Origin: a virus
Length of the DNA: 35,002 nucleotides
IMG/VR virus record: IMGVR_UViG_3300033412_000041
Strand: one strand, 5' to 3'
Below are positions 18,281 to 30,602 of this stretch, piece after piece (the stretch's first letter is position 1; the number at the start of each line of letters is the position of its first letter). The notes beneath the pieces were generated by a model, which did not search any database, was not told the DNA's origin, and worked only from the letters and a program-made list of their open reading frames with translations. Both the position numbers and the translations under genes were made by a program.

Positions 18281-18443
18281 ACATAATCAACCCCAAATGT
18301 TGGTAGGGAACATGGATACCAATAGGTCCCCAATAATGGATGTGCAGGTAATTATTGTTTGACAATTTATAACTAGGCACCCTTTCGTAAATTGATAAGG
18401 CTACCTCTGAATACATATTTAAATGAAATGATAAAAGTTTTAT

Positions 18444-18525
18444 GGAAAGATGGGTGAGCAGTTGAAACCGACAGGCTGTAAATCTGTTCTCAAAAGGCAC
18501 GCCAGTTCGAATCTAGCTCTTTCCA
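18444..18525 (+). tRNA. tRNA-Tyr(GTA)-like, class II (long variable arm), no encoded CCA
   Basis: Hand-folded cloverleaf:
- acceptor GGAAAGA/TCTTTCC
- 3-bp D stem GGT/ACC
- anticodon arm ACAGG-CTGTAAA-TCTGT
- 13-nt variable region
- T arm GCCAG-TTCGAAT-CTAGC with one C-A mismatch. Confidence 0.6.
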
Positions 18526-18537
18526 AATATGTTTTAC

Positions 18538-18822: not shown

Positions 18823-19659
18823 ATGTTAAGACAAGTTATTATAGGAACTTCTTCGGTATTTGTTTGCATTTCATTAATTTCATGCACAAAAGTACCAGCA
18901 GGACATAAAGGAGTAATTGTAAATCTTTATGGATCAGACAAAGGTGTTTCAGAAGAAACAGTGGGAGTTGGTCGTTATTATCTTGGTTGGAACAAAGAAC
19001 TTTACCTTTTCCCAGTATTCTTGCAAAACTATACTTGGGCTGGTGAAGAACAAATTACCATGCAGACATCTGAAGGATTATCAATTTCAGCAGATGTTGG
19101 TGTTACGTATAATATTCATCCAGAAAATGTTTCAAAAGTATTTCAGAAATACAGATTAGGTATTGATGAAATTACTCATACTTTCCTCCACAATATGGTT
19201 AGAGATGCTATGAATCAAGTATCTTCTACTATGACGGTTGAACAGTTATATGGAGATAAAAAGGAACAATTTATTGTAAAAGTAAATGATATTGTAAAAA
19301 AAGAATGTCTAGAAGTTGGAATTGATATGGACAAAATATACCTTATTGGTTCATTTAAATTGCCTGATAATGTTGTTGAATCTATCAATGCAAAAATTCA
19401 AGCTAGTCAAAATGCTATGAAAGTAGAAAATGAAGTTGCTACAGCTAAAGCAGAAGCACTTAAAACGGTAGTAGTAGCAGAAGCTGAAGCGCAACGAATT
19501 TTAATAGATGCTAAAGCTAGAGCAGAATCAAATCGTTTATTATCTGAAAGTTTAACAACATCATTCATTCAGTATCAAACATTGCTTAAATGGGATGGAA
19601 AATTGCCACAAATTACTGGATCATCAACTATTCCAATGATTAACTTAAAGAGCAATTAA
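18823..19659 (+). CDS. SPFH/Band-7 (prohibitin-family) lipoprotein
   Basis: 278 aa. Signal peptide with lipobox LISC. The SPFH pattern is KVPAGHKGVIV...GLSISADVGVTYNI..., followed by an Ala/Glu-rich coiled coil and ...LKWDGKLPQ near the C-terminus. AAGGAG SD. Confidence 0.7.
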   Translation: MLRQVIIGTSSVFVCISLISCTKVPAGHKGVIVNLYGSDKGVSEETVGVGRYYLGWNKELYLFPVFLQNYTWAGEEQITMQTSEGLSISADVGVTYNIHPENVSKVFQKYRLGIDEITHTFLHNMVRDAMNQVSSTMTVEQLYGDKKEQFIVKVNDIVKKECLEVGIDMDKIYLIGSFKLPDNVVESINAKIQASQNAMKVENEVATAKAEALKTVVVAEAEAQRILIDAKARAESNRLLSESLTTSFIQYQTLLKWDGKLPQITGSSTIPMINLKSN

Positions 19660-22182: not shown

Positions 22183-23019
22183 ATGCTAATGACAAGTTTT
22201 CATAATGATAATAAAATTAAGGAAAAATATCTTAATCGTGTAATTAAACACCGTGAAATGGATAACATTATACAAGGAACAGGATGGAAAAATGGTAAGG
22301 GATGTGCTGTTGGATGCACATTAGAAAATTATGATCACTCTCTATACCCAATAGAATTGGGATTACCAATATGGTTGGCTAAATTAGAGGATGTAATATT
22401 TGAAAATCTTCCTAATGAAGAAGCAATTTTATGGCCTGAATTGTTTTTGAGTTCTATTCCAGTTGGAGTATGTGTAGAAAAAGTAAAACATCAATTATCA
22501 ATTATTAGAATTAATAACATGTTAGAAATACAAAATAAATTACTTAAATATTATAAAAATTCAAATTTAGAAAAAATATTTATTGATGTTATTTCATCTA
22601 TTGAGTTAATTAAAAAATGTCATGAATCAGAATTAAATAAAAATTATTGCGATTGGTCATCAGCAGAGTCATCAGCATGGTCAGCAGTAGAGTCAGCAAT
22701 GTCAGCAGCAGAGTCAGCAGTAGAGTCAGCATGGTCAGCAAGGTCAGCAAGGTCAGCAATGTCAGCAGTAGAGTCAGCAATGTCAGCAGTAGAGTCAGCA
22801 AGGTCAGCAGCATGGTCAGCAAGGTCAGCAGTAGAGTCAGCAAGGTCAGAAGCATGGTCAGCAGCATGGTCAGCAGCAAGGTCAGCAGTAGAGTCAGCAA
22901 GGTCAGCAGCATGGTCAGCAGCATGGTCAGCAGCATGGTCAGCAGTAGAGTCAGAAAGGTCATATTCATGGAAAAAAGAAGCAAATAATTTAATTGAACT
23001 ACTTAAACAATGTAAATAG
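22183..23019 (+). CDS. Two-part protein: conserved Cys-containing N-terminal domain plus a C-terminal (x-S-A) repeat helix
   Basis: 278 aa. The N-terminus reads ...DNIIQGTGWKNGKGCAVGCTLENYDHSLYPIELGLPIWLAKLEDVIFENLP... and residues 158-259 are SAW/SAVE/SAM/SAR/SAAW units. Function unknown. Confidence 0.6.
   Translation: MLMTSFHNDNKIKEKYLNRVIKHREMDNIIQGTGWKNGKGCAVGCTLENYDHSLYPIELGLPIWLAKLEDVIFENLPNEEAILWPELFLSSIPVGVCVEKVKHQLSIIRINNMLEIQNKLLKYYKNSNLEKIFIDVISSIELIKKCHESELNKNYCDWSSAESSAWSAVESAMSAAESAVESAWSARSARSAMSAVESAMSAVESARSAAWSARSAVESARSEAWSAAWSAARSAVESARSAAWSAAWSAAWSAVESERSYSWKKEANNLIELLKQCK
22657..22962 (+). repeat. Coding micro-repeat array: 26 TCAGCA (+2 TCAGAA) cores in 9- and 12-nt units
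   Basis: Counted by eye. The units are TGG/AGG/ATG/GAG + TCAGCA with an optional GCA or GTA. Every Ser is TCA, every Ala GCA, Arg AGG and Glu GAG. The region is open in several frames on both strands. Confidence 0.85.
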
Positions 23020-24161: not shown

Positions 24162-24302
24162 ATGCCATTAAAACCAGGAAAAAGTAAAAAGACAATAAGC
24201 AAAAATATATCACGATTAGTTAAGGAAAACTACCCACAAAAACAAGCAGTAGCTATTGCATTCAGCAAAGCACGTAAATCAAAGAAAAAGAAATCTAGTT
24301 AA
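24162..24302 (+). CDS. 46-aa basic protein, not in the track
   Basis: GAGG lies 5 nt upstream. My translation is [46 protein letters not shown], which resembles a widespread small family (...PxKQAVAIAxSKA...). Its stop overlaps the convergent fibre stop in TTAA. Confidence 0.45.
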
Positions 24303-25450
24303 CCATTAAAGTACGACACTATTAATAATAATCCATTACCGCCATTACCTCCGGCTCTATTAGTAGCGTTTCCAGCCATAGCACCAGCACCACCACCACC
24401 TGCTAAACCACCTACGTTTCCATTAATACCAGCAGCAGTAGATTGACTTCTAGCACCACCACCACCAGCTCCTGCACTTCCTCCATTACCGCTGTAAGCA
24501 GCTGTACCGCTCAAAGTTACACCAACACCACCACCTTGACCTGGAAAATTAAGTGATCCTCCACTCGCTGTTCCACCATTTCCTCCAACCACTAAAGCTA
24601 TCGCTGTACCAGAAGTTTGTGCAGTACCACCTACTCCTCCTCCAGCTGTCATCACATCAAAAGTAGTATCACCACCATTTGATCCGTTATTTGCTCCTGC
24701 GGCACCACCAGCTCCCAGTGCTCCTACGGAATAAGTATAAGATCCTGCAGGATATACTCTGAATGAATATCCTCCGCCACCACCTCCGCTAGCTCCTCCA
24801 GCATTTGATGCTGCTCCAGCAACACCTCCACCACCACCGCCTCCTCCCCATATGTGCACCTCAATATGAGTACATCCAGCAGCAGTACTGAATGTTCCAG
24901 AGCTTCCAGCAGTAAAAATTGTAGTAGTTGTAATAGGGATATTTGCCAGAACAGCTGTTGGTATTGTAGATCCAATAGTTGGAACACCGGTGCCACCTGT
25001 AACGAGAATACCATTATTTGCAGTTGTTATTTCACCAATAGTGTTTGTAGCAGTACTATATAGTATTTGGGAAGCAGTAGTTGAAGATTTACCTGTACCA
25101 CCATTAGCAACAGGAAGAACACCTGTAACCTTTGTAGTAAGATCAATACTTCCAGCCAACATCGTATTGGTAATTTTACCCGCACCAATAGCAGTTACAC
25201 CAGTGGAATTTATTGTTACATCTCCACTCATGGCGTTGGTTACCCACTGTGTACCAGAACCAATAAGAAGATTACCTGCAGTAGCAGTCGTTGATCCCAA
25301 TGTGACATTGTTAATCTTAGCAACAGTTGGGTTAGGATAAGAACTAGATAAATCTCCTCCAGCTGATCCACCTGATCCGCTAGTGTTACCAGTACCTCCT
25401 AATGAGATAGGAAGAGGTATTGAGCTAGATAATCCAATTATGTTAGTCAT
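24299..25450 (-). CDS. Tail fibre with a C-terminal glycine-rich domain
   Basis: I prefer the ATG at 25450 (MTNIIGLSS...), after the upstream stop, over the track start at 25489. [12 protein letters not shown] fibre motifs are followed by [11 protein letters not shown]...GGGGGGYSF...GGDTTF and further Gly runs. Confidence 0.6.
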
Positions 25451-25461
25451 AAAATATACCT

Positions 25462-25929
25462 TTAGGATATTTGAGCAATATATAGCCAAGAAACATAAGG
25501 GCTATTACCTCCGCTTATGCCGACCAAATTAGAAGATGCATTATTTACAGTAGCTGTTATGGAAATTGATTGTGAAGAAGCTAAGTTATAAATTATAGAT
25601 CCAGAACATGTGAATATATTGTTTGAACTTTTTGATGAATTTAAACCACATTCGAACAACCTGTATGAATTTAGATTAGCAGATATTGCACATTGATTAC
25701 CATTAGCTCCGGATGTCAAATTGTTTAAATCCAAGGAACAAGCTATAAAATAATTACCTGGTCTAAAAGTAGTATAAATACCGTTTATAGTGCTATATCC
25801 AGTACCAAAAGCGACAGTATCAAATATAACTGTATAAGTAGCTGCATTTCCTGTTACATTAGTTACACCTGTGTTAAGGTAAGCTAACATTCTAGGTCTT
25901 TGTGGGTTATTTAATATATTATTTCCCAT
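25462..25929 (-). CDS. C1q/TNF-like jelly-roll head protein, paralogue 3
   Basis: 155 aa: ...MLAYLNTGVTNVTGNAATYTVIFDTVAFGTGYSTINGIYTTFRPGNYFIAC... Aligns with the two upstream paralogues. Confidence 0.55.
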   Translation of the reverse strand: MGNNILNNPQRPRMLAYLNTGVTNVTGNAATYTVIFDTVAFGTGYSTINGIYTTFRPGNYFIACSLDLNNLTSGANGNQCAISANLNSYRLFECGLNSSKSSNNIFTCSGSIIYNLASSQSISITATVNNASSNLVGISGGNSPYVSWLYIAQIS

Positions 25930-25930
25930 A

Positions 25931-26374
25931 TTAAAATAGCCTTATAATGGAAAGAAATGAGTTACTAGCTACCCCTACAATTTTCCCCATGTTAGACACT
26001 TGCACATCAACGTGAGCTGTATCATTAACTGCCATATGGGCAATTATAGATCCTGGAAACTTACACTGTAATCCAGTATTTTTCCAATTTCCTGTGCTAA
26101 ACGTAGCGAAAATATAACTGCTAGATGTTGTTACCAAAGTAAATATAGTATTAGATACTGCAGAATTTAAATTACTAAGATTAGGCTTCAAAATAAATAA
26201 ATACATTCCTGCAATGGTAGCAGTGAATACTCCAGTTCCAGTGTTAAAGTTTCCACCTTGTACTACAGGATTGAAGAGAGCTGTAACTGTTGTTCCATCA
26301 CCAGTAGCATTAGGCTGGTTAACTGTCGAGTAACAAACTACAAAAGGATTCGATGATGAGTTTATTAAATTCAT
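25931..26374 (-). CDS. C1q/TNF-like jelly-roll head protein, paralogue 2
   Basis: 147 aa: ...PFVVCYSTVNQPNATGDGTTVTALFNPVVQGGNFNTGTGVFTATIAGMYLFIL...NDTAHVDVQVSN...SFLSIIRLF. Confidence 0.6.
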   Translation of the reverse strand: MNLINSSSNPFVVCYSTVNQPNATGDGTTVTALFNPVVQGGNFNTGTGVFTATIAGMYLFILKPNLSNLNSAVSNTIFTLVTTSSSYIFATFSTGNWKNTGLQCKFPGSIIAHMAVNDTAHVDVQVSNMGKIVGVASNSFLSIIRLF

Positions 26375-26820
26375 AGTAACCTCACAGCAGAGAATGTACT
26401 TAAAGTATCAAAATTTATTGTTTTAGTTGAATTTGAAACCTGTACTGTTACAGATGCTGTATCACCAGAGACCATAGGAACTGGTACACAACCAGGAGGA
26501 GTCATCATGTTAGTAGCAGAATTTCTACCAGTTGCAGGACTGAATTCATTAAATTTGAAAGTACCAAAAGTTGTTACTAGATTACATTTTCCTAATGTAT
26601 GAGCTGCACCTACATTGGTTAAAAACACCATTACCAAAAATAAATAATCTCCATCCATAGGAGCAGTAAAAACTCCTGTAGATGTATTGTAACCAGATCC
26701 TGAAGATAATGTATCCCATATAGCAGTATATGTAGTTCCATCTCCAGTGACGTTAGCAGCCTGTGAAGATAGAGTCGCTATAAAAAATGGCGTTGCTTGC
26801 TGGTTAATTATATTAGCCAT
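26371..26820 (-). CDS. C1q/TNF-like jelly-roll head protein, paralogue 1
   Basis: I prefer the ATG at 26820, overlapping the upstream stop as TAATG (149 aa): ...PFFIATLSSQAANVTGDGTTYTAIWDTLSSGSGYNTSTGVFTAPMDGDYLFLV...SGDTASVTVQVSN...STFSAVRLL. Confidence 0.6.
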   Translation of the reverse strand: MANIINQQATPFFIATLSSQAANVTGDGTTYTAIWDTLSSGSGYNTSTGVFTAPMDGDYLFLVMVFLTNVGAAHTLGKCNLVTTFGTFKFNEFSPATGRNSATNMMTPPGCVPVPMVSGDTASVTVQVSNSTKTINFDTLSTFSAVRLL

Positions 26821-29800
26821 TAAGTCACCACTAAATTTAGTCCACCTGCAGGATAAACTACCCAAAGTCCAGAAGCATCATCAGTAAAAGTAGCGCAATC
26901 GGTTGCAGAACCTGATGTTGATATTATATTACCTCCAGCTGCACTTAGTGAGCTCATGAACTGTATTTTATCTGTACCAGTAGTATTAACTCTCCAACCA
27001 CTTGTACTTGCTGGTGGATACGAGACTAATACAATTGACTTACCACTACCTGTTGCTGCAGGAAGTGTATATACGCACTGTCCTCCAGAATAATTATTCG
27101 CATATCTAGTATTTACTAACATTGATTGTGTAGATGCAGTAACAACAACATGTGATGTTATGCTGTAAGTAGGTACGCTAGTAAAATTACCGCTTCCGTC
27201 AGTAGCGACTATGGAGCTTGCCGAAACCCCGTTCACTTGTAGGTTTCCGGCAGAAGTGACCGTGAGAGCAGTAGTAAAAGTTATGTTACTACCCTGAGTT
27301 ACTCCGATTGCTGCATCTATCGTAAGATTATTCGAACTCTTATTTATTCGAAAATTACTTCCTGAGCTATAAGAAGACTTTGTATCAGTACCATCAAAAT
27401 AACAGTCAAAATTTAAGTATTCTGTTCCATGTGAAGGAGCAACTAAATTTATTAATGGGAAGCCATCTACATGGTCATATAAATTCAAAGAGCTATCTGT
27501 GGTTGAATTTTGTCCTACAATATTTAATCTTGCTGATTGAGTTAAAGAAGGTGCAGCTACGGAATTCAACATAAGCTGAGCCATGTCGAAACTTCCACCT
27601 CTTGCAGTAGTCAAACTTCCTGTAACCCTTGCAACTAATGTATTATCCGTAATACTAGGAATATCAACAGCTCCTGCAGCTGCCATTGATAAACCAACTG
27701 CTGGAACTATAGGAGTTCCTGCTGAACCGCTAGTTGCACTTTTAAATGTAATTCCACCTGAACCAACTTCTACAGTAAATGCATTCCCGGTTCCATTGAA
27801 TTTATATGTTGATGATCCACCATCCCAATCTAAATTATAAGATAAAAATGCATTACCACCAGATGTGACACCAATGTTTCTTCCTGATCCACCAAGAGAT
27901 ATATAATCTCCATCAGATAAAACAGGATCAAGAACAAAAGGTGCAACTGTAGATAATAAAGGACCACCACCATTGTTTAAAGTTAATCCACCTAGAGTAT
28001 AAAAACCTGTAGCTGATTCTAAGTTTTTGCCAGAATCTGATCCTATTAGTGTACTACCAGAACTTAATCCACTTAATTGAAGAGCAGACATATTCATTTT
28101 GTTTGTTGATGGATTAAATGACCATCCGGTAGATAATCTTACTTGCTGATATCCATTGGTAGTACTAGCTACAAATATTGGGAAAAATGAAGCATTCGTA
28201 TTAGTCTGCAAAGTATTAATGCTGTTTGCCTGTCCAGCCTGTAATCCAGCGTCAAATAGTCTACCGCCAGTTGTGTCAAATACTGCAATGTTTCCAATTG
28301 TAACTGGAGTACCTGTAACATTCTGATATGTAGAACCACCATTTTGACTTAAGTATAAATTATTTACACCTTGAGGAAGTACATCTGTAGAAGTAAATCC
28401 TCCAAATTGAGTGGTATCTAAAAGTGAAATTTCAAAAGTTGATACAGTAACTGGATTTGCAGTTGCACTTTCATTAGATATCCATACCTGTAAAGAATCT
28501 GTTGGTCCTGTCATTTCTAAATTAGCAACAAATGGTATAGATTGTGGTCCTGGTGCTCCTGTTGGATCTACTGTTATTGTTGCAATAGCATTCGTTAATA
28601 CAGTAGAGCTTCCGCTATCTATTAATAAATATACTGAATAAGTTTGTGTCAAAACACTTGATGTTCTAACAGTTAAAACACCATTAATTAATATTCTTCT
28701 TGGCGCTGTAGTTAAAAATTGAGCTACTGGTGTTCCGCCAGAAAGTGAAACATTAAAGTTATTTTGAAAAACAACATTAACTCCATCACTCAAAATAGGA
28801 GTTGGTGTAGATGGACCTGAAAATGTTGTTGGTGTTATATTTGCTGGTCTAAAATAAAATGCTTGTCCTGAAGTAACAGCAGAAGGTCCACTAGTAGCTG
28901 ATATTGTTATATCTCCACCTAACTCCGAAATATTTATATTTGCTCCAGCAACAAGTTCAGCTCTTCCGCTTATTCCATTTATACTTTCAACATAACTAAA
29001 AAATGACCAATTACCATCATCAGATGAATTTCCATTAGATATAAAATGAGTGTTGGCCGGAGAATCTAATGTTACTAAAAAACTTCCTCCAGAAGTAAAT
29101 ACATCTATATTCTTAAAACCTGGAAGAATTATTATAAATGGTCCTTGTGATAATAAAAATGATCCATCATCTCCAAAAAATGCTGATGGAAGATAAATAG
29201 AATTTCCATTTGTATTACATGCTATAGTAATATAATTAGGACATGGATTACTTAAATGATATTGATTACCAACAAAATCTGAATCTGTAAGTAATATAGA
29301 TTCTCCTGACCCAAATCCTAAATTAGAAAAAGAATCTTGATTATTTGATACATCGGAAAGATTATTAGCTATCCTTAAAAAAGGACCAGAACCACCACCT
29401 CCTCCAGTAGTAACATTAACAAATGATGCTCCTGAAGAATCTATTCCTCCTATTGAAGAAGGTAAAGGTTCTATTAATACATACATATTACCTGCAAATG
29501 TATTTCCAGAATCTACTGAAAAATATTGACCAGATTTTAATTGTTCGATAGATTGAAAATCATTAGATCTTTCTAATTGCCATAAGCTAATAGAACTTCC
29601 TTTGGATTTTACAATATATATTCCATTTTCATTTGAATTAGTTTGTTCAGGTAATAATATTCTGTCATTTAATTCAACATTAACAGAATCTATAGAAAGA
29701 GAACCAACATTAATTGCCGTTAATGTTGATCCTATTCCATTATTTAATTTACCGTTATAGTAAATACCAGATAAATTTCCATTAAAAACTAATCTAACAG

Positions 29801-29840
29801 ATGTTAATTGTTGATATATATTAAATGACGATCCTGTCAT
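26820..29840 (-). CDS. Large tail fibre/spike (1006 aa) with an N-terminal anchor paralogous to 29856..30602
   Basis: The N-terminal approx. 170 aa align with the neighbouring 248-aa protein, including the NNLSDV...NLG fibre motif. The rest is Ser/Thr/Gly/Asn-rich and beta-like. Confidence 0.65.
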   Translation of the reverse strand: MTGSSFNIYQQLTSVRLVFNGNLSGIYYNGKLNNGIGSTLTAINVGSLSIDSVNVELNDRILLPEQTNSNENGIYIVKSKGSSISLWQLERSNDFQSIEQLKSGQYFSVDSGNTFAGNMYVLIEPLPSSIGGIDSSGASFVNVTTGGGGGSGPFLRIANNLSDVSNNQDSFSNLGFGSGESILLTDSDFVGNQYHLSNPCPNYITIACNTNGNSIYLPSAFFGDDGSFLLSQGPFIIILPGFKNIDVFTSGGSFLVTLDSPANTHFISNGNSSDDGNWSFFSYVESINGISGRAELVAGANINISELGGDITISATSGPSAVTSGQAFYFRPANITPTTFSGPSTPTPILSDGVNVVFQNNFNVSLSGGTPVAQFLTTAPRRILINGVLTVRTSSVLTQTYSVYLLIDSGSSTVLTNAIATITVDPTGAPGPQSIPFVANLEMTGPTDSLQVWISNESATANPVTVSTFEISLLDTTQFGGFTSTDVLPQGVNNLYLSQNGGSTYQNVTGTPVTIGNIAVFDTTGGRLFDAGLQAGQANSINTLQTNTNASFFPIFVASTTNGYQQVRLSTGWSFNPSTNKMNMSALQLSGLSSGSTLIGSDSGKNLESATGFYTLGGLTLNNGGGPLLSTVAPFVLDPVLSDGDYISLGGSGRNIGVTSGGNAFLSYNLDWDGGSSTYKFNGTGNAFTVEVGSGGITFKSATSGSAGTPIVPAVGLSMAAAGAVDIPSITDNTLVARVTGSLTTARGGSFDMAQLMLNSVAAPSLTQSARLNIVGQNSTTDSSLNLYDHVDGFPLINLVAPSHGTEYLNFDCYFDGTDTKSSYSSGSNFRINKSSNNLTIDAAIGVTQGSNITFTTALTVTSAGNLQVNGVSASSIVATDGSGNFTSVPTYSITSHVVVTASTQSMLVNTRYANNYSGGQCVYTLPAATGSGKSIVLVSYPPASTSGWRVNTTGTDKIQFMSSLSAAGGNIISTSGSATDCATFTDDASGLWVVYPAGGLNLVVT

Positions 29841-29855
29841 AAAAAAACTCCATGA

Positions 29856-30602
29856 CTATTGAGTAGTAGCAAATACAAGATAATTAAATACAGAAACGCC
29901 GGGATCTCCACTGCATAAAGCTACAATAACTCCAGTTCCAGTATCTGCTTTTTGTACTGTTACTGCATTAGCTGATGTTTCTATAGAAACAAAACCTATA
30001 TTTGATGCAACAACACCTGGAGCCGTAATATTAACCGTAGCACTTCCACCAGGATTAGAAAATTGACCAACTTTAATACTGGCAGCTGATTGTGCTCCTA
30101 AATTTGTCCTTGCTGTAGATACACTTGCAACATCCGATAAATTGTTAGCTGCTAACAAAAATGTTCCGCCAGATGGATCTGATGAAGGACTGAAAGTAAG
30201 AGAATCAACACCTAAGTGAGCTGGTAATGGTTCTACAAGAACATACATAGCGCCTGCTTTAGTTGTACCAGCACCAACACTTAAATATTGACCAACTTTT
30301 AGTTGTTCGATATTTTGTTGATCTTCTGATCTAGTTAGTATCCAAATTGAAGAAGAACTACCAGCGCTAGTCGCAACATATACACCATTTTGATTAGCAC
30401 TTGATTGTCCTGCTAACAAAATTCTGTCACCTTGATTTACTGCTACGCTATCAATGGTCAATGCAGATACGCTATTAGCAATTAAAGTGGCTCCCACTCC
30501 ATTATTTAAAATACCATTGTTGTAAGTACCCGACAAATTAGTTGTTGATACTAATCTAACTGAGGTTAATTGTTGTAAATAACTATATTGAGAAAAACTC
30601 AT
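29856..30602 (-). CDS. Short tail fibre (248 aa) sharing the N-terminal anchor domain
   Basis: QQLTSVRLVSTTNLSGTYNNGILNNGVGATL...DRILLAGQSSANQNGVYV...MYVLVEPLP...ANNLSDVASVSTARTNLG. Confidence 0.6.
   Translation of the reverse strand: MSFSQYSYLQQLTSVRLVSTTNLSGTYNNGILNNGVGATLIANSVSALTIDSVAVNQGDRILLAGQSSANQNGVYVATSAGSSSSIWILTRSEDQQNIEQLKVGQYLSVGAGTTKAGAMYVLVEPLPAHLGVDSLTFSPSSDPSGGTFLLAANNLSDVASVSTARTNLGAQSAASIKVGQFSNPGGSATVNITAPGVVASNIGFVSIETSANAVTVQKADTGTGVIVALCSGDPGVSVFNYLVFATTQ

Follow-up and report, generated by a model that had tools for sequence, protein, structure and literature searches.

The window analysed here, a 35,002-nt stretch of viral DNA (IMG/VR record IMGVR_UViG_3300033412_000041), carries at positions 25462-26820 three adjacent genes whose products, P1, P2 and P3, are bare heads of C1q/TNF fold, with neither collagen nor coiled-coil as a stalk. 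The C1q domain family in phages is already known and is very large; what is new is a shaft-less trio that is fixed in number and order across seven divergent loci, each of the three positions having its own orthologues, that is inherited as a single cassette, and that is always found after a fibre whose C-terminal domain (CTD) resembles XD1 of the kind seen in CBA120 TSP4 and T4 gp9/gp10. On balance, P1-P3 are likely to be receptor-binding tip subunits of gC1q/TNF jelly-roll fold, which have lost a shaft or never had one, and which would be carried by the fibre.

The P22-like portal, coat protein and terminase encoded in the window identify its source as a P22-like podovirus. The portal shares no more than 26% identity with its counterpart in any cultured phage, and neither the region nor P1 was matched when cultured-phage records were searched at DNA and protein level. 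All of the features described here lie on the minus strand. The trio lies between two fibre genes where the late operon ends, and its placement in the fibre module by the initial annotation holds good, the module being the receptor-binding module of this podovirus. Directly upstream is the gene for a 1006-aa fibre (26820..29840), which matches no family in Pfam and whose N-terminal domain of ~182 aa (29295..29840), presumed to serve in virion attachment, is shared with a 248-aa protein encoded at 29856..30602 (52% identity over 182 aa, E = 1e-49 by BLASTP) and taken to be a second, short appendage. The last gene of the operon (24299..25450) begins 11 nt past the P3 stop codon and encodes a 383-aa glycine-rich fibre or adhesin, which matches Pfam Gly_rich_2 (PF21722, E = 1.4e-8) and phrog_863 (E = 2e-19). 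A search of NCBIfam with all the proteins of the fibre module returned no match.

The gene for P1 (149 aa, position-1 orthogroup; 26371..26820) extends from an ATG at 26820 to a TGA ending at 26371, the longest open reading frame reaching back to a TTG at 26865. Its start codon and the fibre stop codon TAA (26822-26820) have the last A in common, in the sequence TAATG. The P1 stop codon in turn overlaps the start of the gene for P2 (147 aa, position-2 orthogroup; 25931..26374) in an ATGA at 26374-26371, and one base (25930) lies between the TAA of P2 and the ATG of P3 (155 aa, position-3 orthogroup; 25462..25929). Both the open reading frames and the sequence agree exactly with the three adjacent paralogous genes, and with the coupled junctions between them, that had originally been described. 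No promoter-like or terminator-like sites were found inside the trio above shuffled expectation.

The relationship between the three proteins is well beyond chance: in BLASTP comparisons P1 is 37% identical to P2 (E = 9e-26) and 28% identical to P3 (E = 3e-18), while P2 and P3 are 24% identical (E = 2e-8). The motifs from which gC1q identity had first been proposed (NVTGDGTT, GYNTSTGVFT, GDYLF, SGDTASVTVQV/NDTAHVDVQV and STFSAVRLL/SFLSIIRLF) are all present in the translations. Taken singly, none of the proteins reaches the gathering threshold of 23.7 bits for Pfam PF00386 (C1q): P1 scores 18.9 bits (E = 1.8e-3), P2 falls just short at 23.1 bits (E = 9.5e-5), and P3 alone has no match in Pfam. 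P3 is assigned to the gC1q family through its link to P1, and it is recognised by the family HMM with E = 5e-46. A family profile constructed from 36 relatives was compared with 177,635 PDB sequences, and gC1q chains were the only matches, the best E-values being 5e-10 for EMILIN-1, ~5e-8 for CTRP5 and C1QL3, and 2e-6 for the C1q C chain; 26 of the 36 relatives themselves match PF00386 (best E = 1.4e-14). The AF2 monomer model of P1 is all-beta (pLDDT 92.4, pTM 0.84), and Foldseek aligned it with C1QL3, Caprin-2, C1QL1, C1q and Cbln1 at E~1e-8 (TM 0.64-0.78), with many viral UniProt/BFVD entries named "C1q domain containing protein" (TM 0.85-0.91, 21-29% identity), and also with phage distal heads, namely the CBD of the cyanophage A-1(L) short fibre (8KE9) and the phi812 spike knob. 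AF2 and Foldseek together give P1 a ten-strand beta jelly roll, and the gC1q identity proposed from motifs is thus upheld by profiles and by structural modelling.

The heads are 147-155 aa in length, with only ~10 residues before strand A. All three lack an N-terminal shaft or anchor of their own, the domain starting from about residue 10, and contain no collagen-like G-X-Y repeats. The initial annotation was therefore right that there is no stalk; its further statement that there is no anchor motif has to be qualified, given a short N-terminal peptide, M-x-N-[IL]-[IL], and a neck that are common to P1, P2, P3 and the glycine-rich protein, the N-terminus of which reads MTNIIG. The base motifs are conserved in all three paralogues, and the P3 orthogroup has in addition its own C-terminal insertion, GGxxPYVSW. 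Within the P1 orthogroup, with base and apex loops assigned from the canonical gC1q topology and not from coordinates, conservation is highest in the base loops (1.0 for A'-B', 0.83 for B-C) and lowest in the C-D, D and E-F regions (0.55-0.61).

More than 100 related loci were located in viral contigs. In the longer relatives the C1q-like domain comes last in the chain, after N-terminal parts that resemble fibres. Tandem arrays of two, three, four or seven C1q-like genes, each product having its own short stalk, are common and arise by lineage-specific duplication, and single stalk-less heads also occur alone, for example in L007 (156 aa) and L011 (161 aa). When the locus was compared across phages, as the initial annotation had advised, the trio was found to be conserved, with exactly three heads in identical order in seven independent loci. 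The heads from these loci group by position into three clades that share one topology, and the distance matrices among the three heads are correlated (r=0.77-0.85). In every locus the spacing at the junctions lies between a 4-nt overlap and a 1-nt gap, and the number and order of the genes are maintained despite 35-66% divergence and different virion types. Long fibre genes equivalent to that for the 1006-aa fibre precede the trio in L001, L002, L022, L023 and L024. A metagenome scan for further trios yielded one extra, partial locus (L105), and a genome scan yielded distant relatives only.

Every fibre that precedes a trio ends in the same CTD, which in the window occupies the last ~110 aa of the 1006-aa fibre (26823..27152) and is a candidate docking platform for the heads. 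This domain has at least 1179 relatives, mostly proteins of ~198 aa. The last 110 aa of the fibre were modelled by AF2 as an all-beta domain with pLDDT 84-95, and the top Foldseek matches were to CBA120 TSP4-N (E = 4e-5). The sole match of the CTD sequence in the PDB, a weak one (E = 0.39), is to TSP4 residues 77-126, at the start of XD1; XD2 or XD3 modules were not detected in the fibre. TSP4-N/T4 gp10-type modules are parts of branched receptor-binding complexes (PMC8825819). Among 89 arrays, in which the loci are not phylogenetically independent, C1q proteins with no more than 100 residues before the domain follow a CTD-ending gene in 26 of 41 cases, and stalked C1q proteins do so in seven of 48 (Fisher p=2e-6). 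The CTD and a C1q domain also occur in a single chain in L052 and L029, where the C1q domain is N-terminal to the CTD, the reverse of the order expected if C1q simply caps the CTD. Co-divergence was considered as a sign of contact and dropped, since the divergence of the CTD and that of the heads are uncorrelated (r about 0); any interface would therefore have to be generic.

Docking of the heads had been proposed either on the 1006-aa fibre or on the downstream glycine-rich fibre. For the former there is circumstantial evidence in the cassette, the CTD association and the XD1-like fold; the latter is disfavoured, because the glycine-rich gene does not adjoin the trio in other trio loci. In CBA120, XD1 is regarded as a spacer, and partners are bound by XD2/XD3 (PMC8825819). 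The domains by which CpaA and StcE bind glycans have the XD1 fold as well (PMC8825819), and for this reason the fibre CTD could itself be a distal binding knob.

If P1-P3 are indeed tip subunits, the late fibre operon would yield the trio through termination-reinitiation, with translation coupled to the fibre gene and from each head gene to the next, and such coupling would supply P1-P3 in roughly fixed proportion. The heads would trimerise, as C1q/TNF domains do, and would be carried on the virion by the trimeric 1006-aa fibre. Their conserved base, that is the N/C-terminal side with the NVTGDGT, GYNTxTGVFT and GDTA loops together with the ~10-residue N-terminal neck, may dock on the XD1-like CTD, leaving the variable sides and apex of the heads pointing to the host surface. 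The ~10 residues outside the head domain offer little for an anchor, an observation that counts against the docking proposal.

The composition of such a tip can be envisaged in two ways. It is tempting to suggest, although only tentatively, that P1, P2 and P3 form an obligate 1:1:1 heterotrimer, a viral equivalent of the C1q A/B/C head, in which case the XD1-like CTD of a symmetric, homotrimeric fibre would bear an asymmetric receptor-binding cap. Such a cap would be a heteromeric receptor-binding tip in a tailed phage, swapped between phages as a three-gene cassette. Alternatively, and this is rather unlikely, each of the three might homotrimerise, any one of them capping the fibre through a shared base to give a population of mixed tips with a broader or bet-hedged host range. 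Nearly all phage receptor-binding proteins are homotrimeric, and the lone stalk-less heads and the lineage-specific tandem arrays described above are in keeping with homotrimers. Chains with two C1q-like domains likewise exist, and since such a chain would be unable to close a pseudo-trimer alone, each of its domains would by implication homotrimerise. The retention of the base motifs in all the paralogues is consistent with competition for one docking site. On the other hand, the fixed number and order of the genes in the seven trio loci speak against alternative homotrimers, in contrast to the arrays of stalked relatives, which vary freely in number; nor would alternatives need the fixed ratios that tight coupling would impose. 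One P1-P2-P3 heterotrimer per fibre is slightly favoured over alternative caps that are each homotrimeric. Single chains in which C1q-like domains occur two or three times were also considered as evidence for a heterotrimer and lend it no support, their domains not corresponding one-to-one to the P1, P2 and P3 orthogroups.

Small genes immediately following fibre genes often encode chaperones (PMC9608196), and the association of the trio with one particular fibre CTD would suit assembly chaperones of the upstream fibre, comparable to Tfa, T4 gp38/gp57 or Pam3 gp25 and absent from the mature virion. This is improbable: the proteins have the fold of a distal binding head and not of any known chaperone; no match to Tfa or Caudo_TAP was obtained in Pfam, PHROGs or NCBIfam; the same domain ends long fibre proteins in most relatives; and three deeply diverged paralogous chaperones would be unusual. 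Still less credible is a location elsewhere on the virion, for example on the neck or at three-fold sites of the capsid, where the heads would act as accessory adhesins unconnected with the 1006-aa fibre. In favour of such a location, Pseudomonas phage Pa223 has a capsid spike tipped by a TNF-fold knob (bioRxiv 10.1101/2025.06.11.659172), the fibre and trio cassette of the myovirus-like contig L001 adjoins the terminase gene away from the tail genes, and a PHROG annotated "head decoration" is a weak match for the domain at the N-terminus of the 248-aa protein. Against it, the heads have no attachment domain like the N-terminal anchor and beta-helix of Pa223, and every locus links the trio to a fibre gene and not to capsid genes.

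The initial annotation had regarded a trio of stalk-less C1q heads as foreign to the standard podovirus tail, a claim of novelty that is overstated, because C1q-domain proteins encoded beside tail fibres, in podoviruses among others, have been proposed as receptor-binding since 2014. Such genes are hypervariable, and their products are putative receptor-binding proteins both in pelagiphage-like podoviruses (Mizuno et al. 2014, PMC3909814) and in a cryoconite Mu-like phage (Bellas et al. 2020, PMC7468147). The proteins of these uncultured phages resemble P1-P3 in their domain, in their position beside or downstream of tail-fibre genes and in their presumed role in host recognition. They differ in being 200-1100 aa long, with the C1q domain C-terminal on a stalk of their own, whereas P1-P3 are stalk-less and comprise three deeply diverged paralogues of fixed number and order, for which a separate fibre would provide the shaft. 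With vertebrate C1q A/B/C and other gC1q proteins (C1QL1-3, Caprin-2, cerebellins, collagen VIII/X NC1, adiponectin) the trio shares profile homology and the ten-strand jelly roll, and vertebrate C1qA/C/B are likewise encoded by three clustered paralogous genes. However, the trio is only 15-22% identical to these proteins, has no collagen-like region, possesses a phage-specific invariant TGDGT loop, and is at most a putative heterotrimer.

Trimeric distal TNF/C1q-like knobs are found in A-1(L) gp33 (CBD, 8KE9), the phi812 central spike (9EUL) and the Pa223 capsid spike, and are structural neighbours of the P1 model; an A-1(L) construct of stem and CBD attaches to host cells (PMC10966104). These knobs are homotrimeric and form a covalent part of the fibre or spike chain, whereas P1-P3 are separate proteins. 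In the branched complexes of CBA120 (TSP4 with TSP1-3), G7C (gp66 with gp63.1) and T4 (gp10 with gp11/gp12), one protein carries others encoded by neighbouring genes, and the fibre CTD matches XD1 of CBA120 TSP4 in fold and weakly in sequence. There, though, the modules documented to hold partners are XD2/XD3 and not XD1, they stand at the N-terminus, and what they carry are large tailspikes equipped with docking domains of their own; in the window the module is C-terminal and the putative partners are bare 150-aa heads. The gp38 adhesins of T2 and S16, small separate proteins whose gene directly follows that for the distal fibre and which act as receptor-binding tips, would be analogous in role; they have an N-terminal attachment domain and a polyglycine sandwich in one gene, in contrast to the C1q fold and three genes of the trio, and the glycine-rich fold in the window belongs to the 383-aa protein, not to the heads.

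Phage host range is set by distal fibre tips. In this phage, tip and shaft appear to have been separated, the tip being encoded by a portable cassette of three genes that recombines independently of the fibre; this would make it a natural plug-in format for retargeting. A heterotrimer, if formed, would be an asymmetric receptor-binding head of a kind unusual in phages, and an independent parallel to the vertebrate C1q A/B/C head. The CTD represents a very large family of unannotated domains, is associated statistically with short proteins of C1q-like type, and is a candidate general adaptor in uncultured phages.

Programmed frameshifting that would fuse the fibre to P1 was also considered. In the window P1 lies in the -1 frame relative to the fibre, this frame is open for 18 codons upstream, and a canonical-looking slippery heptamer, A-AAT-TTA, is present at 26838-26832, before P1. 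The frame of P1 relative to the fibre is 0 in L002 and +1 in L024, and frameshifting is therefore rejected; the heptamer simply encodes a conserved Leu-Asn-Leu in an AT-rich genome.

The window holds an entire phage genome of about 35 kb, and other samples contain the same genome assembled with different break points. It encodes a P22-type portal, coat, scaffold, terminase, Hc3-like head-closure protein and ejection protein; no close cultured relative was found, there being no DNA match and a portal whose best identity to a cultured-phage portal is no more than 26%. Once the two contig ends are joined, the late operon can be seen to close with a receptor-binding module encoding, in order, a 618-aa tail protein, a 248-aa protein, a 1006-aa fibre, three small heads (P1, P2 and P3, together the trio) and a 383-aa Gly_rich_2 protein. 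The first 182 residues of the 248-aa protein and the fibre (minus strand, 30057-30602 and 29295-29840 respectively) are shared, with 52% identity (E = 1e-49), and the two look like separate appendages carrying one attachment domain. Its PHROG matches carry differing annotations (head decoration, tail fibre, virion structural). The 383-aa protein (24299-25450, minus strand) bears a Gly_rich_2 domain (PF21722) of the type seen in the adhesins Pam3 gp24 and S16 gp38, and it starts with MTNIIGL, similar to the N-termini of the heads (MANIINQ, MNLINS and MGNNILN); this short peptide may be a docking signal that they have in common.

The initial annotation placed three tightly joined ORFs on the minus strand, and all of its coordinates and junctions were borne out: P1 (26820-26371, 149 aa), P2 (26374-25931, 147 aa) and P3 (25929-25462, 155 aa). 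In the sequence TAATG the stop of the fibre gene and the start of P1 have an A in common, the P1 stop overlaps the P2 start in ATGA, and P2 and P3 are separated by a single base; the 383-aa gene begins 11 nt beyond P3. Promoter-like or terminator-like sites within the block did not exceed shuffled expectation, and the block reads as one translationally coupled operon segment. Pairwise identities of 37% (P1/P2, E = 9e-26), 28% (P1/P3, E = 3e-18) and 24% (P2/P3, E = 2e-8) indicate that the three are true paralogues. A canonical-looking -1 slippery heptamer, A-AAT-TTA (26832-26838, minus strand), lies 10 nt ahead of the fibre stop, and upstream of P1 its reading frame stays open; fusion of fibre and P1 is nevertheless unlikely, because the relative frame of P1 is not the same in L002 and L024, two other loci bearing a trio.

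Assignment of the heads to the C1q family (PF00386), originally made from motifs, is borderline for single sequences and was confirmed at the level of the family. Against a Pfam cut-off of 23.7 bits, P1 scored 18.9 and P2 23.1, and P3 alone gave no match; in PHROGs, P1 and P2 are assigned to phrog_15750, a group of unknown function. Searching with an alignment of the three sequences recovered 36 relatives, many with a precomputed PF00386 match, and 26 of the 36 matched PF00386 when scanned one by one (best E = 1.4e-14). The profile of these relatives, run against all PDB sequences, matched gC1q chains only, led by EMILIN-1 (5e-10), CTRP5 and C1QL3 (about 5e-8) and the C1q C chain (2e-6); the first protein of another kind was the TNF Eiger, at E = 0.05. 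The AlphaFold2 model of P1 built with this alignment is all-beta (pLDDT 92.4, pTM 0.84), and Foldseek placed it in the PDB closest to C1QL3, Caprin-2, C1QL1/2, C1q, Cbln1 and the collagen VIII/X NC1 domains (E about 1e-8, TM 0.64-0.78), with TNF-family ligands ranking after the C1q-type heads. Three phage structures were also matched: 8KE9, which is the distal CBD of the short tail fibre of cyanophage A-1(L); the central spike knob of phi812; and cyanophage A4. Among predicted viral structures the best matches were UniProt entries annotated as C1q domain containing protein (E about 1e-15, TM 0.85-0.91). The profile and fold results therefore vindicate the motif-based call, the predicted fold being that of C1q and no other.

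The novelty of the trio is more modest than was first claimed. C1q-like domains beside tail-fibre genes have been known as putative receptor-binding proteins since 2014, in marine pelagiphage-like podoviruses (PMC3909814), and were described again in cryoconite phages (PMC7468147); such domains are also described in eCIS fibres (PMC12923769), and TNF/C1q-like distal knobs have been solved for A-1(L) gp33 (PMC10966104) and the Pa223 capsid spike (bioRxiv 10.1101/2025.06.11.659172). Neither the domain nor its general role in phages is therefore new. No description was found in the literature of bare C1q heads without a shaft, of a fixed set of three position-specific orthologues that moves as a cassette, or of a link between C1q heads and the XD1-like C-terminal domain of the preceding fibre discussed below.

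Shaft-less trios, with heads of 145-156 aa, form a small clade of seven independent loci: the window, L001 (a 44-kb contig with E217/Pa193-like myovirus genes), L002, L022, L023, L024 and a 9.3-kb JGI contig, with a partial eighth in L105. Neighbour-joining groups the 21 heads by position into three clades of identical internal topology; the arrays of stalked relatives, which have their own shaft before the domain, instead group by locus. The pairwise-identity matrices of the three orthogroups are correlated (r = 0.77-0.85), paralogues within any trio locus are only 20-38% identical, and at every locus adjacent genes overlap by up to 4 nt or lie at most 1 nt apart. The clades, matrices and junctions argue that the triplication is old; the genes are constant in number and order, and all three are inherited together.

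Every trio is preceded by a long fibre gene (713-1028 aa). The fibre bodies differ, and common to all is a final domain of some 110 residues (CTD; window 26823-27152, minus strand) with the consensus "...SGW.I.A.G.DKIQF.SSL.AAGG...ST.GSATD..T......G.WVVYPA.GLNLVVT". This domain belongs to a large unannotated family of at least 1179 relatives (among them P0037-P0156, L101 6001-6597 and L103 5493-6089), mostly proteins of about 198 aa with a conserved N-terminus, MATNNAIN, on contigs of 30-42 kb. In L101, L102 and L103, the three contexts examined, the next gene downstream is C1q-like. A CTD-ending gene directly precedes 26 of 41 C1q-like proteins with at most 100 residues ahead of the domain, against 7 of 48 stalked ones (odds ratio 10, Fisher p = 2e-6, over 89 non-redundant arrays whose loci are phylogenetically non-independent), and the two domains are fused in a single chain in L052 (7800-8906) and L029 (5883-7133). 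AlphaFold2 confidently predicts the last 110 residues of the fibre to be an all-beta module (pLDDT 84-95). Its best structural neighbours are the assembly region at the N-terminus of CBA120 tailspike 4 (TSP4; E = 4e-5), a baseplate protein of Klebsiella phage KP1 and the Pa223 capsid spike; T4 gp10 and CpaA are weaker matches. The sole match of the CTD profile among PDB sequences, TSP4 residues 77-126 at the start of module XD1, has E = 0.39 with clear motif agreement. The predicted fold resembles the XD1 module of TSP4 and T4 gp9/gp10. Branched receptor-binding complexes are built from XD modules (PMC8825819). A first caution over the CTD as partner of the heads is that XD2 and XD3 are the modules documented to bind partners, XD1 being a presumed spacer with a fold common to glycan-binding domains.

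A second caution is that CTD and heads do not co-diverge (r about 0). In L023, for instance, the CTD is the closest to that of the window (73%) but the heads are distant (36-49%); L002 shows the opposite, with the most similar heads (57-66%) and the least similar CTD (38%). The trio is accordingly swapped as a cassette, independently of the fibre. The fibre of L001 (7104-10001) contains four copies of a motif of about 30 aa, [FY][FY]P[LI]FV.S...G[FY]Q......F.[FY]NPSTN.L, which matched no Pfam family; the window fibre has a single copy, FFPIFVASTTNGYQQVRLSTGWSFNPSTNKMN.

In the interpretation with the most support, the trio provides one or more receptor-binding heads, and the shaft of the fibre that carries them is a different polypeptide. 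Docking of the heads on the upstream fibre is plausible on circumstantial evidence; the heads would trimerise, contact the CTD, be present in the virion and bind the receptor. Within the P1 orthogroup the A'-B' loop, B-C loop and D-E turn are most conserved and the C-D, D and E-F regions most variable. Comparison of the three paralogues likewise places the A'-B' loop, with its invariant GDGT, and the B-C loop (GYNTSTGVFT) among the segments conserved best. Judged by canonical gC1q topology, not coordinates, the conserved loops would lie at the base of the head, beside both termini, which fits a generic docking base with a variable binding surface. In function, the nearest analogies are the TSP4-based branched complex and the gp38-type adhesins capping the long fibre of T2/S16; membership of either family is unsupported.

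As to stoichiometry, a P1-P2-P3 heterotrimer is a tentative possibility. It is favoured by the presence of exactly three genes, co-inherited in fixed order, by their expression in fixed ratio and deep position-specific divergence, and by a copy number that, unlike that of the trio, varies in related arrays. That the three instead form alternative homotrimeric caps is only slightly less likely; homotrimers are the rule among phage receptor-binding proteins, single stalk-less heads occur in other loci, and two-domain chains can homotrimerise only domain by domain. What probability remains falls to a role as chaperones, to attachment at another site on the particle, or to some further explanation.

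An exhaustive HMMER search showed the C1q-like family to be very large, with 28,370 representative proteins passing E <= 1e-3 and 1,475 passing the stricter E <= 1e-30, and with lengths of 149 to 1117 aa among the 150 best matches listed. ORFs were called in 105 fetched loci and scanned with the family HMMs: in most members the domain is C-terminal in a longer protein, and tandem arrays of 2, 3, 4 or 7 genes are common, for example seven copies in L089 (7156-11840) and four long copies in L031 (781-8441). Single chains with two or three domains joined by linkers of about 10 residues also occur (L094 2256-3998; P0157, P0158 and P0162). Two contigs with C1q-like head genes are binned in MAGs: L005 (JBIOKB010000003.1, 39 kb) in one labelled Candidatus Babeliales, and L008 (JAGVJV010000006.1, 34,388 bp; identical to L065 and also an IMG/VR viral genome) in one labelled Parachlamydiales. 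This is a possible hint of intracellular or amoeba-associated bacteria as hosts of the phage group (the window has about 32% GC), a binning artefact being equally possible.

Elsewhere in the window, a degenerate tandem repeat (22654-22962, plus strand; periods 9/12/21/33/57) lies inside ORF 22183-23019 and encodes about 100 residues of the type SA[WVMR]SA[VAR]ES within a 278-aa protein that matched no Pfam family; the repeat is open in all three frames of either strand. The phage also encodes an SPFH/Band 7 (flotillin-like) protein (18823-19659, plus strand; Pfam E = 7e-28), with a tRNA-Tyr gene (18443-18526, plus strand) just upstream.
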